From an uncultured virus (IMG/VR IMGVR_UViG_3300035454_002149) (Duplodnaviria > Heunggongvirae > Uroviricota > Caudoviricetes), in IMG/VR virus record IMGVR_UViG_3300035454_002149: DNA of 20,000 bases, one strand, 5' to 3'. The translations under genes and the position numbers were made by a program. Shown here in pieces: positions 5,471-20,000 of this stretch (positions within the stretch are counted from its first letter, which is position 1; each line of letters opens with the position of its first letter). Below the pieces are notes generated by a model. It searched no databases. It was not told the DNA's origin and was given only the letters and a program-made list of their open reading frames with translations.

Positions 5471-5980
5471 TTACGAGTTGTAGTTCTCGATGAGGCCCAG
5501 CGTGACTGTCTGACCTTGTGTGCCTGACTTGATGGCTGTGCTGCCGCCGTCAAAGAAGTTGGCCACATAGCGCACGGGAGGTGTGCTGTAGTCCAAGGCC
5601 CACTTGTTGGTGAGTTTGGAAACACGCACAGGTGTAGAATCACCCTCATCCATGGTGATGGTCATGGTGTTGTCAGTGAGATCACCGTCATCAAGGTCTG
5701 CTAATACGCAAACACCAGTGTTGGTGCCATCGGACACCAGGTACTTGATGGTACCTTTCTGGCGGATGATGTAACCGTCGGCTTCGGCATTGCCACCGAT
5801 CTTCACACGCACTTTGACTGTGGGATATGTGGATGTATCGACTGTGTCGTTACCGCCTACCACACCGTAGAATTCTGTGGCTGCCATGGTGTTGGGGAAC
5901 ACAGGCACTTCAACTGCGTTGAATGCATTGAAACCAATGTCTTTGGTGGTTGTTTTTTTGATTTTGAGAGGACGTCCCAT
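5471..5980 (-). CDS. Putative virion (head-associated) structural protein
   Basis: 169-aa ORF starting MGRPLKIKK, with a strong AGGAGA RBS and its own late promoter, located downstream of the capsid gene. Function is inferred from position. Confidence 0.65.
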   Translation of the reverse strand: MGRPLKIKKTTTKDIGFNAFNAVEVPVFPNTMAATEFYGVVGGNDTVDTSTYPTVKVRVKIGGNAEADGYIIRQKGTIKYLVSDGTNTGVCVLADLDDGDLTDNTMTITMDEGDSTPVRVSKLTNKWALDYSTPPVRYVANFFDGGSTAIKSGTQGQTVTLGLIENYNS

Positions 5981-5984
5981 TTTG

Positions 5985-6073
5985 TTTTCTCCTATAAAGA
6001 AGTCCGATGTGGGTTCTAGCCACTACGCGGTGGGTTAACGCCGCATAAACGCAGGATGCGTCAAGTATTTAGC
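5985..6073 (-). promoter_or_regulatory. Late promoter (GCTAAATA, ~6066-6073) and structured 5' leader
   Basis: Hairpins ACGCA-TCC-TGCGT, TATGCGG...CCGCGTA and GTGG-CTAGAAC-CCAC precede the RBS. Confidence 0.5.
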
Positions 6074-7860: not shown

Positions 7861-7866
7861 TATTTA
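7861..7866 (-). promoter_or_regulatory. Late promoter motif TAAATA overlapping the HNH stop codon
   Basis: GGTAAATAAAGCATG. Confidence 0.5.
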
Positions 7867-8628
7867 CCGGGGCCTGGCTTGGGCACAGTTAGGGCCGTGC
7901 CAGCGGGGGTAGGTATTGACCGCGATCATCTGTTGGCAGTGGGGGCAGAGTAGTTTGGGTTTGATTTTGCCTCGGTTCGCTTCTGCTCGGCGTGCTTTTT
8001 CTTCTTCAGTTTGTTTCCTACCTCGTATCTTGTTGCCAATCTTTTGACGAGTTGAATCTAAGACTTCTACTCCCCATCGATTGTTTTTTTCTCCGCGCTT
8101 ACTCTCAGCCATCTTGGCTCGCCATTCTTCACTAAATGGCGCACGTTTTTTTCCTAACTTGCTTTCTGCGATTTTTTGTCTTGCTTCTTCTGTTTTTGCT
8201 CCATTATTATCGCCGGATACAGCCGCACGTTGTCGTTGTTTCCCTTCTTCGCTGCGATAAAACTTGTCACCGTACATTGGATTGTTTTCCCCGCTAACCT
8301 TCTCACTTTGTAATCGTGCGTATTCTTTTTTGAGATTCTCATACACCCGAGCTGTTATCTTTGTATGATATCTTTTTTGTCCTGGATTCTCTGCCCGCAT
8401 CATTCTAAGAGCGTTAATCATCTTGTAATGATCTTCTCCGGTGGTCATCTTGACTAACAGCCAATGGCAAATAAAGTGTTCGCGGGGTGTAATAAACGCT
8501 ATATTTTCTTTTTCATCTGTACCGCCGAGACTACGTGGCGTAATGTGATGGCGCTCGTAAGGTGGCTCAAGGACTCTTCCTTGTGCTCTTTGGATAATTT
8601 GATTATACCATTTGGTGTATTTGTTCAT
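7864..8628 (-). CDS. Free-standing HNH homing endonuclease with NUMOD3 repeats and a C-terminal Zn-binding motif
   Basis: ERHHITPRSLGGTD...N...ITPREHFICH (HNH); GENNPMYG, TEEARQKIAESK and FSEEWRAKMAESKRGEKN (NUMOD3-like); CPHC...HGPNC. Start moved to ATG 8628 (MNKYTKWY), just after TATAAATA. Confidence 0.85.
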   Translation of the reverse strand: MNKYTKWYNQIIQRAQGRVLEPPYERHHITPRSLGGTDEKENIAFITPREHFICHWLLVKMTTGEDHYKMINALRMMRAENPGQKRYHTKITARVYENLKKEYARLQSEKVSGENNPMYGDKFYRSEEGKQRQRAAVSGDNNGAKTEEARQKIAESKLGKKRAPFSEEWRAKMAESKRGEKNNRWGVEVLDSTRQKIGNKIRGRKQTEEEKARRAEANRGKIKPKLLCPHCQQMIAVNTYPRWHGPNCAQARPR

Positions 8629-8633
8629 AATGT

Positions 8634-8641
8634 TATTTATA
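8634..8641 (-). promoter_or_regulatory. Perfect T4 late promoter TATAAATA
   Basis: Exact match to the T4 gp55 consensus, 5 nt before ATG 8628. Confidence 0.7.
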
Positions 8642-8671
8642 TAGGTTAGCACGAAATAAACATTATGTCAA

Positions 8672-17129: not shown

Positions 17130-17142
17130 GGTTTTCTTAGCC

Positions 17143-17150
17143 TATAAATA
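17143..17150 (+). promoter_or_regulatory. Perfect T4 late promoter TATAAATA for the gp26-like operon
   Basis: Exact consensus, 31 nt before ATG 17182. Confidence 0.7.
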
Positions 17151-17160
17151 TCGACAGCAT

Positions 17161-17166
17161 TATTTA
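17161..17166 (-). promoter_or_regulatory. Late promoter motif GGTAAATA for the tape-measure gene
   Basis: 31 nt before ATG 17129; faces the plus-strand promoter. Confidence 0.55.
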
Positions 17167-17181
17167 CCAGAAGGAAAATCC

Positions 17182-18021
17182 ATGAATTCCAACCCATTAA
17201 GCCAGTATTTCCGGCAACCGGCGATCTATATACGCCTGCCCAGCCAAGGCAGATTCTATCCGCCCGGGTCCATTGATATGCCGGCCAATGGCGAGTTACC
17301 TGTGCTGCCCATGACCACTCTTGACGAGATCACTTACCGCACACCGGATGCGCTGTTCAATGGTCAGGCAGTGGCGTCAGTGATCGAGAGCTGCGTGCCC
17401 AACATCAAGACTGCATGGCAAGTCCCAGCCATGGACATCGACACCATACTCATAGCCATCCGCATCGCGACCTACGGTCACCAGCTAGACGTTGACACAA
17501 AATGCCCAAACTGTGAATCTGAGAACACGTTTGGTGTAGATCTGCGACATGTGCTGGATCGTATCAAAGCACCAGACTATAATCAAACTGTCAAGCACAG
17601 TGATCTGGAGATCTACTTCCGACCCATGACCTACGGCAACATCAATGAAAACAGCCTAGCGCAGTTTGAGGAGCAGAAGTCCTTGCAGATCATCGACGAG
17701 AATACTGAACAGACTGCTGAATCAAGATCGCAACAATTGAGCGAAATACTCCGGCAGATTACCAGCGTCACGGTCAAGGCTTTGGCGCAGAGCATCGCTG
17801 CGGTCAAAACTCCGCAGGCCACTGTGTCTGAATCACAACACATTGAAGAATGGCTGTCCAATTGTGATCGTAAACTGTTTAGCACAATCAGAGACCACAT
17901 CATCAAGATCAAACAATCCGGAGAGATCGCACCGCTGGATTGCCAATGCGGTAGTTGCCAGCATCAGTATCAACAACCTTTGACCTTGAACATGTCAGAT
18001 TTTTTCGAGGCCGCCTCCTGA
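17182..18021 (+). CDS. Baseplate hub/tail assembly chaperone, T4 gp26-like
   Basis: Start at ATG 17182 after AAGGA (MNSNPLSQYFRQP.IYIRLPS.G). Contains PMT..DE, D...ILIAIRIATYG, CPNC, CGSC and a terminal DFF. Confidence 0.75.
   Translation: MNSNPLSQYFRQPAIYIRLPSQGRFYPPGSIDMPANGELPVLPMTTLDEITYRTPDALFNGQAVASVIESCVPNIKTAWQVPAMDIDTILIAIRIATYGHQLDVDTKCPNCESENTFGVDLRHVLDRIKAPDYNQTVKHSDLEIYFRPMTYGNINENSLAQFEEQKSLQIIDENTEQTAESRSQQLSEILRQITSVTVKALAQSIAAVKTPQATVSESQHIEEWLSNCDRKLFSTIRDHIIKIKQSGEIAPLDCQCGSCQHQYQQPLTLNMSDFFEAAS
18000..18006 (+). other. Candidate -1 ribosomal frameshift heptamer T TTT TTC
   Basis: In-frame X XXY YYZ heptamer four codons before the stop; the -1 frame is open into the next ORF. 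Confidence 0.55.
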
Positions 18022-18059
18022 TCCAAACTCCAGATCAGATCGCAGTCACGATCGATCGC

Positions 18060-18236
18060 ATGGAAAAGGAGGCCAAACTCATCCGTGAAGAGGCGTTGAA
18101 AATGTGTTGGTACATGCGCGGCGGTATCACTTATGTTGATGCCATGAATCTCAGTTCAACTGAGAGAGAACTGGTCAGTTCTCTCATCAAAGAAAACCTA
18201 GAGACCACTAAAAAATCCGGGCTACCATTCTTCTAA
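18060..18236 (+). CDS. T4 gp51-like small baseplate assembly protein (possibly made only as a frameshift extension)
   Basis: WYMRGGITYVDAMNLS..ERE pattern after the gp26-like gene; no RBS before ATG 18060. Confidence 0.65.
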   Translation: MEKEAKLIREEALKMCWYMRGGITYVDAMNLSSTERELVSSLIKENLETTKKSGLPFF

Positions 18237-18239
18237 AAT

Positions 18240-18737
18240 ATGGATTTCGTACAAGCAAAGATCGACATAATGAATTGGATCACTGGGTTCGTAGAGCAAC
18301 CCAATGCCAGTCTTGATGGCTGGGCACCATGCCCGCACGCCAGGAAAGCACGCCTGCAGGGTCAACTGGACATACGCCCGGGAGAGATCGACCCTTACAC
18401 CGATCTCATGCACGCCGAACTGGGCAACTACATGGTCATTGGCTATGTGTACGATCCCCAGACTATCGACGCAGACAAGTTTGAAAGCCAGATACGGGCA
18501 GTAAATCAAGGATTTCTTGTGCCCAGGAATATCGTCGCCCTGGCCGATCATCCCCGCAGTCCTGAGATCATCAAAGGTATATCAATGAACCAAGGCACCT
18601 GGGCCATAGCGTTCATACAACCTTTGGACAAGCTGAATCATTTTGCACGCCTAATCGCGGGCAAAGGCTACTACGACGGCTGGCCCGAAGACTACCTGAA
18701 AGGATTGTTTGAGTTCCGCGAGGATCCCAGACAGTGA
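18240..18737 (+). CDS. DUF1415-like protein
   Basis: I..WI..FVE......PCPHARKA and LADHP resemble the CPFA / HP motifs of DUF1415. Confidence 0.5.
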   Translation: MDFVQAKIDIMNWITGFVEQPNASLDGWAPCPHARKARLQGQLDIRPGEIDPYTDLMHAELGNYMVIGYVYDPQTIDADKFESQIRAVNQGFLVPRNIVALADHPRSPEIIKGISMNQGTWAIAFIQPLDKLNHFARLIAGKGYYDGWPEDYLKGLFEFREDPRQ

Positions 18738-19177
18738 GCAGTTATCAGTTTGCACGTATCGATTTGTCCCGGACCAACTACACTGATTCTGTGTACTGGG
18801 CCTATCTCAGCAAGACCGATCACATGATCGATGAATGCCTAGAGATATATCGCAAGTACTGTATCCACAAGCATTTTGCATCGGTGATGCCCATGTTTGC
18901 CAGTAGATTCCTGGACCCCATGGCTGACATCATTGGGTATTATGACAACAACAAAATGGTAGCATTCAGCCTGATACGACGGTTTGACGACGAGAATGCC
19001 TTGTGCGATCAGTTTGCTTGGACATATCACGATCCCAAAAAGAGATTGGGAATCGAGACGATGAAAACAGAATGTGCTATCTACAAGGCTCGGGGGTTCC
19101 GCTATCTCTACCTCGAGCAGGCACATCTGTACAAATCAGAGATAGAAGGATTTGAAATCTTAGGACCAATGACATAA
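18734..19177 (+). CDS. GNAT-fold protein resembling the C-terminal domain of aminoacyl(Arg/Leu)-tRNA-protein transferases (ATE1/Bpt)
   Basis: GYYDNNKMVAFS...FAWTYHDPKKRLGIETMKTECAIYKARGFRYLYL...YK resembles YDP...LG....EI..A...G..Y.YLG...YK. GTG start overlaps the previous TGA. Confidence 0.55.
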   Translation: MSSYQFARIDLSRTNYTDSVYWAYLSKTDHMIDECLEIYRKYCIHKHFASVMPMFASRFLDPMADIIGYYDNNKMVAFSLIRRFDDENALCDQFAWTYHDPKKRLGIETMKTECAIYKARGFRYLYLEQAHLYKSEIEGFEILGPMT

Positions 19178-19512
19178 TGGCAGACTTATACACTATCTGG
19201 GCAGACAAAGAAGGGGATATCTCGGACCTTGATTGGGTCAACGGAATGAAATCATTCTTTGATCATCTCATCAGCGAGGGCAAGATGGAATCATACAGGA
19301 TCACACGTTGCAAGATGGGATTTCGCTCAATCCCAGATCTTCCAGAGTGGATGATCATTATGGAGTTCCAGAACATGGCACAAATGGACGAAGCATTCCG
19401 TCGTGTTGCTCCACTCCAAGGCGAACTTGAAACCAAACATCGGAGTTTCAATCAGTTTGTTTCGGGTAACATCCAACACGCACTCTTCAGAGATTGGCCT
19501 GATAAGTTTTAA
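19177..19512 (+). CDS. Small dimeric alpha/beta-barrel-like protein (DUF6614-like)
   Basis: YTIWAD...D..W......F..L..EGKM..YRITR.K.GF...PEW.I.MEF..MAQMD.AF...H...ALFRDWPD; TAATG overlap with the previous gene. Confidence 0.55.
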   Translation: MADLYTIWADKEGDISDLDWVNGMKSFFDHLISEGKMESYRITRCKMGFRSIPDLPEWMIIMEFQNMAQMDEAFRRVAPLQGELETKHRSFNQFVSGNIQHALFRDWPDKF

Positions 19513-19525
19513 ATTGACCTTATCA

Positions 19526-19599
19526 AGATGTGCTGCGCACATCTATTGACTGCGCTTCGCTTGTCAATGTTTTATAGTTAACGAACGAAGTGAGTTATA
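19526..19599. repeat. Cluster of short inverted repeats containing GCGNAGC-type mini-hairpins
   Basis: AGATGTGC-TGC-GCACATCT (19526-19544), ATTGAC...GTCAAT (19545-19568) enclosing GCTTCGC, and a CGAACGAAGTG element. Confidence 0.65.
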
Positions 19600-19950
19600 C
19601 AGTATCATCCAGATGCAATGGTCACACTAAGCCCAGAATCGGGCCAAGGGTGTTTTAGCATCATCCGAGTGCTAACAGTCACACAGCGTTATGGCATTAC
19701 AGAGGCGGTCGTCCGGTACCTCGAGCCACGTCTTCAACGACGGCGGTTGCTATACGAACGCTATCTCGCATCGCAACGTGCAGGTTCTCCCTGCTCTTTT
19801 TGCCTTTTATCCTTTTCCAACAACCAAATCGCAGGGCTTACAAAGCGATCGTCATCCTTTCGGGCAGTGGTTGAGTGCTCGCTGGCGCGGCGAGGCTTCC
19901 GTCCCTGCGATCCAGGATCCAGGTCAAGGGCACACGATGTTGGCCTGTGC
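19600..19950 (-). ncRNA. Candidate large structured non-coding RNA (unclassified)
   Basis: No credible ORF; at least eight helices found by eye, including a 9-bp long-range pair. Strand inferred from G-U pairs, a GAAA tetraloop and the orientation of the upstream gene. Confidence 0.5.
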
Positions 19951-20000
19951 TAGCCGTTGTTGCCTAATTTGCCTTTGATGTGAGAGCCGTGGACTCGAAC
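19950..20000 (-). CDS. 3' end of a gene entering from the right, probably a Seg-like GIY-YIG endonuclease-family protein
   Basis: Reads ...VRVHGSHIKGKLGNNG*. VRVHGSHI recalls the C-terminus of small phage GIY-YIG proteins, but only 16 codons are visible. Confidence 0.35.
   Translation of the reverse strand, partial: VRVHGSHIKGKLGNNG

Follow-up and report, generated by a model that had tools for sequence, protein, structure and literature searches.

The minus strand at one end of the window (the whole stretch of 20,000 nucleotides analysed here, from the uncultured virus IMGVR_UViG_3300035454_002149) carries an RNA already known as an orphan, whose 3′ module is new and strange. The conserved structured RNA at 19950-19603 is real, and it is a core element of T4-like freshwater phages of about 340-400 kb. 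Two copies of a 7-nucleotide sequence (7-mer X) in its 3′ module change together across phages, which, to judge from sequence comparison, suggests base pairing between the RNA and the DNA that encodes it, perhaps as a step that initiates DNA copying. It might be a cis-acting structured pre-primer analogous to ColE1 RNA II, encoded at a transcription-primed replication origin, a reading to which a probability of roughly 0.4 is given. The broader proposal of a new class of RNA device in phages, reading DNA through base pairs formed by a freely changeable twin 7-mer, be it a self-targeting origin RNA or a twin-guide RNA, falls a little short of an even chance. The features of the locus are listed below, where A1 is an alignment of 54 homologous sequences.

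19950..20000, minus: 3′ end of a SegE-like GIY-YIG gene; the frame ends ...HGSHIKGKLGNNG-stop, with the stop codon at 19952-19950
19603..19950, minus: whole structured RNA, about 350 nt (conservation in A1, covariation, GNRA loops)
19818..19955, minus: 5′ domain, Rfam Polynucleobacter-1 (RF01718; cmscan 111 bits, E 1e-23)
19685..19817, minus: middle core with two pseudoknots (covariation in A1)
19762-59/19688-85, minus: pseudoknot 1, already in the Weinberg 2010 supplement alignment (PMC2864571)
19741-37/19712-08, minus: pseudoknot 2 (covariation in A1)
19722-19702, minus: most conserved block (A1)
19659..19684, minus: unit 1, with UGAC, spacer, CUC (19669-67) and 7-mer X (19666-19660) (covariation in A1)
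19623..19653, minus: hairpin between the units (helix 13; 97.6% of cells paired)
19603..19627, minus: unit 2, with UGAC, spacer, UCU (19613-11) and the same 7-mer X (19610-19604) (7-mer identity with unit 1)
19526..19592, both strands: mini-hairpins with C-GNA-G triloops at 19592-85, 19568-45 and 19544-26 (DNA fold z about -3.2)
19177..19512, plus: DUF6614 gene, a convergent neighbour outside the element (PF20319, 76 bits)

Identity of the RNA

The RNA is a member of RF01718, and the motif and most of its structure were already known. The cmscan match covers the entire model (1-141 of 141) at 111 bits against a gathering score of 37, the 5′ 138 nt of the window RNA being a full-length member. 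The earlier note, which named this Rfam search as a check, had proposed a candidate new phage ncRNA; the strong match over 19818-19955 and the supplement alignment of 2010 remove that novelty. Polynucleobacter-1 was reported by Weinberg et al. (2010; PMC2864571), in the accessible parts of which it is catalogued without an assigned function; the alignment in supplement file 5 reaches about position 19685 of the window, marks one pseudoknot and names a chromosomal copy in Polynucleobacter. Its extended 3′ part, with the core block and the pseudoknot, is present in the window RNA on comparison with A1 by eye. The published alignment, as far as the accessible supplement goes, ends before the twin module, which forms the last ~85 nt of the RNA, and before the DNA hairpins. 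A further difference is the placement of the element in jumbo phages and not chiefly in Polynucleobacter. In some homologues the 5′ Rfam domain is swapped for other 5′ domains while the core and the 3′ module are kept, and RF01718 is matched in only 3 of 20 chosen divergent loci.

In the literature searched, which was mostly open-access, Weinberg et al. (2010) is the only paper with the name Polynucleobacter-1. What is new here, as not found in print in that literature, is the twin module, the downstream DNA hairpins, the position in the jumbo-phage core, the nuclease swap and the second subfamily. Neither Polynucleobacter nor SegE or endonuclease is mentioned in the accessible part of a genome-language-model preprint (10.64898/2026.09.22.753630). 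No tRNA or tmRNA was found on search, in agreement with the earlier note. Large orphan RNAs have repeatedly proved to be guides, templates or ribozymes.

Structure and covariation

A fold running almost end to end on the minus strand had been described from the window alone. The single sequence folds no better than chance (MFE z = -0.69; 24 of 100 shuffles fold as well), whereas covariation among homologues does uphold the structure. A 66-pair model is paired in 96.7% of the cells of A1 against 34-42% in slid controls, the former figure leaning in the favour of the model because this was drawn from A1 itself. Double-sided changes occur at 42 of the 66 pairs in these 54 sequences and are strong as far as the RNA 3′ end; one pair, for example, is C-G in 22, G-C in 12, U-A in 11 and A-U in 9, with no breaks. 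The pseudoknot of the 2010 alignment is 100% paired in A1, with double changes in 4 of 4 pairs. GNRA loops are enriched, as an RNA would lead one to expect (61, with 2.2 in shuffles), and conservation extends to about 19603 and then drops.

The strings listed in the earlier note all occur where it had placed them, and most of its helices are backed by homologues, namely 19950-46/19934-30, the CTC/GAG stem, the CC/GG loop and the hairpins 19792-81 and 19777-46, as well as 19728-25/19695-92, the AGG/CCT stem and 19648-27; the two pseudoknots and the twin 7-mers had been missed. Two of its helices are window-specific alternatives. The strands of the 9-bp helix 19903-11/19828-36 have different partners in homologues (19922-17 with 19911-05, and 19850-45 with 19832-27), and strand 19741-37 of the CGTC/GACG helix pairs there with 19712-08. 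The lack of a convincing ORF holds: frames open for 100 aa or more occur antisense in 4 of the 54 homologues and on the sense strand in none, the plus-strand ORFs over the RNA in the window being of 111 and 95 aa. The description of a multi-domain phage RNA of about 350 nt starting at the stop codon of a GIY-YIG gene is likewise supported. Extra covariation at A1 columns 255/421/437, 136/173 and 7/18 resembles a base triple and tertiary pairs, and one extra covariation ties the core to the twin-module hairpin.

Twin 7-mers

UGAC, similar spacing and an invariant A at position 6 of the 7-mer are common to both units. Under a pattern blind to identity, all 7 positions agree between the two 7-mers in 228 of the 237 distinct modules among the matches listed, with close relatives counted separately and 12 multiply placed loci left out; positions 2-6 are matched in all 237 of these listed modules, mismatches falling at the two end positions only. 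Mutual information on A1 gives four column pairs that covary by identity (54 of 54), and among the 19,701 pairs formed by 199 variable columns of A1, three twin pairs alone reach an identity of 1.0. When scans demanded a rare variant in unit 2 only, unit 1 was still matched. There are about 22 matched variants of the 7-mer, and about 60 changes are placed on a tree (FastTree, with the 7-mer left out), a number that the short alignment may inflate; of 252 loci, 30 that were unplaced and 16 that were placed more than once were left out of this tree. One variant tally took the best-matching placement and is biased, whereas the mutual information, the rare-variant scans, the tree and the identity-blind count are unbiased.

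In 127 of 127 cases the triplets CUC and UCU stay distinct, which speaks against ordinary gene conversion. Identity spills weakly into the flanks (0.65 vs 0.38 at -2; 0.71 vs 0.37 at +2); L113, L225 and L024 were dropped from the flank-identity, partner and residue analyses of the module. The hairpin between the units tolerates G-U pairs on the minus strand. The module is present once in 5 of 6 genomes, and the remaining genome, G013, has two copies far apart, with different 7-mers, each of them internally matched. In common variants, positions 4-6 of the 7-mer read UGA or UAA, both stop codons, which is broken in rare variants. In the locus L113, unit 1 and the hairpin are absent directly after the core, as if deleted between repeats; this gap may be a natural deletion or an assembly error.

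The earlier note had advised looking for a variable guide-like segment. The twin 7-mers are variable, and the search for their partner was negative. No complement of the 7-mer turned up in the RNA itself or up to 3 kb away (37 against an expected 29.9), and no consistent inverted 7-mer pair, two at 13-nt spacing being found in G002 only. A search for a tracking site in 270 gene families of 10 genomes (ORFs of up to 1500 aa) gave one match, in 3 of 7 rows, and genome-wide the 7-mer is neither enriched nor avoided. No nuclease codons were found to track the 7-mer, and no GIY-YIG residue in 102 proteins predicts it (best 0.70 against a baseline of 0.58 for X1, and 0.76 against 0.63 for X5). The different 7-mers of the two copies in G013 point to a local partner. 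The twin copies could stay identical because both pair with one strand, because one pairs with the complement of the other, or because a symmetric protein reads both. One complement is always present, in the template strand of the locus itself, and by exclusion within the RNA, the flanks, the shared genes and the nuclease residues, this strand is probably the partner. The twin 7-mer is a sharp and cheap handle, by which locus-DNA pairing, protein binding and template jumping can be separated, and a family of at least 237 distinct modules provides natural variation to design from.

Hairpins downstream of the RNA

Directly after the second 7-mer, the loop type switches from GNRA to GNA triloops. 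In 151 non-redundant loci, the next 170 nt contain 86 sense and 58 antisense GNA triloops (5-bp hairpins) against 3.4 and 3.2 in shuffled sequences, while inside the RNA there are 3 and 3 against 4.4 in shuffles. A stem motif of the type GAGCG...AGCGA is found in 108 of the 151 loci against 1.3 in shuffles. In the accessible part of a review by their discoverers, GNA mini-hairpins are described as much stabler as DNA than as RNA, and as occurring at the G4 origin, RSF1010 ssiA and N4 promoters (PMC13037366). In view of this stability and of the loop switch, the sequence appears to pass from an RNA function to a single-stranded-DNA function at unit 2, and 19526-19592 is a candidate single-strand initiation or helicase-loading zone.

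Phage and operon

The window is part of a T4-like phage according to profile matches to the major head protein (phrog_138), the portal (phrog_213) and the baseplate hub (phrog_150), and a blastn search of the window against cultured phages gave no match. The longest carriers of the RNA are records of 340-400 kb rated 95-100% complete, and a PHROGs scan of the proteins shared by the large RNA-carrying phages shows a T4-like replication set. In 10 of 10 long contigs, the operon runs in the order late sigma factor (gp55), gp47/SbcD, gp46/SbcC, optional inserts, nuclease and RNA. No sigma-70-like promoter was found in 18000-20000, and no minus-strand terminator-like site. Loci were collected from viral contigs with a 5′ pattern (109 loci) and a core pattern (at least 120 further loci).

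A possible replication pre-primer

Replication start in T4-like phages of 300-400 kb is largely unknown, hence the interest of a candidate origin. Among the three guesses of the earlier note, namely a partner of the nuclease-like protein, a replication-primer RNA and a protein sponge, the replication primer fits best. The operon transcript would fold and present copy 1 of the 7-mer, which would pair with the template strand at copy 2 as the polymerase passes, 7 nt being near the length of the RNA-DNA hybrid in the polymerase. This pairing would nucleate a lasting R-loop; the displaced single strands would fold into the mini-hairpins and load primase or helicase; and RNase H-type activity or the adjacent nuclease would trim or resolve the junction, with the RNA end priming DNA synthesis. 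If copy 1 pairs with the template at copy 2, the two copies have to match each other whatever their sequence, and so the twin identity, which covaries like a strict helix, counts for the model.

In ColE1, an upstream stretch of the RNA reportedly pairs with the template at a downstream copy, as Masukata and Tomizawa are said to have described in 1990. Such pairing is not stated in the accessible parts of PMC3977913, PMC3488243, PMC4555960 and PMC5703827. ColE1 priming is described, in the accessible part of one paper, as depending on a persistent hybrid, with the displaced strand used for helicase loading (PMC5043065). Both systems have a long structured RNA followed by a zone that needs single-stranded DNA, as far as that source goes for ColE1 and on sequence evidence for the phage locus. 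There is no sequence likeness to RNA II seen in Rfam, and the phage element differs in its variable 7-mer twin, its two-fold module and a phage with its own T4-like replisome; the RNA may work like RNA II without being a homologue.

The RNA lies 4-16 kb from the main transcription divergence point in 5 of 5 long genomes, which favours the pre-primer reading but may be plain synteny. A skew test at four-fold sites in 5 genomes, in which the best-fit origins scatter and most fits lie within the permutation range, the signal being weak overall, places no consistent origin at the RNA and does not support the model. GC-skew minima near the RNA follow gene orientation and are given no weight as signs of an origin. 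A lack of G-richness in the 7-mers counts against the model, and the two-fold symmetry of the module in UGAC and spacing is not needed for a one-way invasion, a protein dimer fitting at least as well. If the pre-primer reading is true, replication starts in an RNA-programmed manner in jumbo phages.

The adjoining nuclease

The RNA starts at the stop codon of a GIY-YIG gene, as had been proposed, and this codon overlaps the first RNA helix. The GIY-YIG homologues are of 141-148 aa, and a full-length one (L002) matches PF19835 (112 bits) and phrog_447. Its predicted model has a pLDDT of 93, and the best fold match is the catalytic domain of I-TevI (Z 8.3, rmsd 2.8, 83 aligned), followed by UvrC (Z 5.8) and T4 EndoII (Z 5.5); a Foldseek search with the model gave no match at E <= 0.001. 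Invariant Y, G, E and N residues are found in 73 aligned proteins. By profile and predicted fold, the upstream protein is a member of the GIY-YIG superfamily and a putative nuclease. Phrog_447 is labelled 'NAD synthetase' in PHROGs and in many records, while profile and fold are those of a GIY-YIG nuclease.

A nuclease gene lies upstream of the RNA in 202 of 211 loci among the matches listed, being of the GIY-YIG type in 193, which makes the linkage that the earlier note had wished to see checked a tight one, and of the PD-(D/E)XK type in 9; none of these loci has both and 9 have neither. These loci are what remains of 263 distinct ones after 52 with too little upstream sequence were left out; L225 and L473 were dropped from an upstream-gene comparison. 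Among the matches listed, the GIY-YIG gene is within 480 nt of unit 1 in 181 of the 193 loci. The PD-(D/E)XK gene belongs to PF24608 and phrog_244, 'RusA-like Holliday junction resolvase'. In whole-record searches, no PD-(D/E)XK homologue was found in four GIY-YIG genomes of at least 95% completeness, and G013 (85% complete) and G005 (60%) have PD-(D/E)XK while GIY-YIG was not found. A search for T4 endonuclease VII gave no match, the positive control likewise giving none. The GIY-YIG family extends more widely than the RNA, to 429 cultured phage records; in five cultured T4-like phages with distant homologues there is no room for the RNA, the best E of the twin-module model being 0.37. The idea that the RNA is a fixed partner of the GIY-YIG protein is weakened by the unrelated nuclease in some phages, by these distant homologues without the RNA and by the nuclease-free second subfamily.

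The neighbouring genes nevertheless allow an alternative to the pre-primer, in which a nuclease dimer (GIY-YIG or PD-(D/E)XK) is steered by two identical guides to a DNA site that is present twice, for example the symmetric strands of a recombination junction or sister copies of a locus in recombination-dependent replication. The near-constant presence of one or the other nuclease gene, the mutual exclusion of the two types in whole-record searches, the gp46/gp47 genes in the operon, the pseudo-symmetry of the units and a long basic beta-hairpin (residues 40-66) in the predicted GIY-YIG model speak for such a ribonucleoprotein. It is unlikely all the same, as one RNA would have to serve two unrelated folds, the five T4-like phages have the protein without the module, the second subfamily has no adjoining nuclease, no target was found in the inverted-pair, 3-kb flank, 270-family and genome-bias searches, and the two genomes with the PD-(D/E)XK gene are incomplete. 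If it is true, two unrelated junction nucleases are directed to symmetric DNA, and either this or the pre-primer would for the first time explain how a motif that has been a puzzle since 2010 works, through a new kind of recognition between RNA and DNA.

OMEGA and HEARO RNAs (IscB, TnpB) resemble the element in being structured RNAs of about 350 nt that overlap the stop codon of a nuclease gene. They differ in that the present RNA has no Rfam match to these families, occupies a fixed core position and not a mobile element, and has no single terminal guide. The tigRNAs of TIGR-Tas and the IS110 bridge RNAs share with it two pseudo-symmetric units, identity-covarying motifs, a phage-encoded origin and a place beside a nuclease, but here there is a single unit and the variable segments are identical instead of being two different spacers. 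Membership in TIGR-Tas was rejected, as there is no array (one module in 5 of 6 genomes) and the adjoining genes, PF19835 or PF24608, are GIY-YIG or PD-(D/E)XK and not of the Nop domain.

Other explanations of the twin identity

Both 7-mers might instead bind a symmetric protein dimer on a scaffold RNA, their identity being kept by the protein and not by base pairing. According to the accessible part of the source (PMC12045711), the repeats of TIGR arrays have box motifs that covary, being bound by a symmetric dimer, and this precedent, with the UGAC and the invariant A at position 6 common to both units, favours the idea. It is nonetheless distinctly unlikely: the 7-mer has some 22 matched forms and changes some 60 times on the tree, none of the GIY-YIG residues follows these changes, G013 carries two unlike 7-mers, and no Nop-domain family was found among 75 shared proteins (PHROGs scan, about 20 without a match).

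The twin copies also resemble the A-B-A′ template of DRT10 ncRNAs and telomerase RNA, in which a polymerase would copy from unit 2 to unit 1 and the product would re-anneal at unit 2 to give tandem repeats. In DRT10 ncRNAs, as far as the accessible text goes, A = A′ is kept under free variation of the sequence, and activity is lost on mismatch (10.1101/2025.10.16.682844), a signature equal to the one found here: two direct repeats with enforced identity and free sequence. Such a template is improbable here, for no reverse transcriptase was found, either as RVT_1 (PF00078) in 5 long genomes, of which 4 are 90% complete or more (a positive control matched in 3 of 14), or as an RT family among the 75 shared proteins (12 of 87 proteins were not scanned), although a very divergent or a host enzyme is possible; and B is a stable hairpin of about 50 nt, not an open loop. 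Membership in DRT10 was rejected, the A-B-A′ direct repeat with free sequence being there and a reverse transcriptase not found.

Just as improbable is a twin module that acts only as DNA, in slipped-strand or site-specific exchange with a 7-bp overlap, next to an upstream RNA that would be a separate regulatory or processing element of the operon 3′ end. In tyrosine-recombinase sites, the 7-bp overlap must be identical while its sequence is free. The weak spill of identity into the flanks and the locus that lacks everything between the units fit such exchange, but the latter is one locus and possibly an assembly error, the sites are 42-78 bp apart with no inverted arms, unit 1 abuts an RNA pseudoknot, and the inter-unit hairpin tolerates G-U pairs on the minus strand. 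Finally, a CsrA/RsmA sponge, which the earlier note had suggested for the many GGA motifs, or an ordinary 3′ UTR or terminator element is very improbable: of the 11 GGA motifs of this RNA in the window, 3 are found in every one of the 54 homologues and 5 are kept in at least 45 of 54, but 6 are poorly kept (3-31 of 54), those in the twin sites vary to AGA, GCA, GAA and AAC, no minus-strand terminator-like site was seen, and the twin identity, pseudoknots and downstream DNA hairpins would be left unexplained.

The second subfamily and further observations

A second subfamily has a different core with the same twin module and downstream hairpins, and no adjoining nuclease gene. Its members are L233:1501-1860 (in G013 at about 165.7-166.1 kb), L529, L531, L534, L562 and L588, and the element has no Rfam match above threshold. 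In L534, a tmRNA-like gene (1163-1457, minus) is convergent to the second-subfamily RNA.

Bacterial genome bins gave 10 matches to the RNA. Two contigs of one bin labelled Haliscomenobacter, L364 (148 kb) and L366 (183 kb), each carry the RNA with differing 7-mers; they are probably binned phage DNA and possibly a hint at the host. In L166, L128 and L199, in which the usual gene end is missing or lies far off, several short direct repeats of the AGGCAC type are located 5′ of the RNA. Elsewhere in the window, the Rfam freshwater-2 RNA (RF02980; 63.4 bits against 49.9) is found at 5978-6063 on the minus strand directly 5′ of the start of a 169-aa gene, and an HNH/NUMOD3 homing-endonuclease-like gene (7864-8652, minus) directly follows the major head gene. 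A short divergent gap at 17130-17181 separates an 826-aa gene from the baseplate-hub gene and contains, at 17143-17150 on the plus strand, TATAAATA, the T4 late-promoter consensus.
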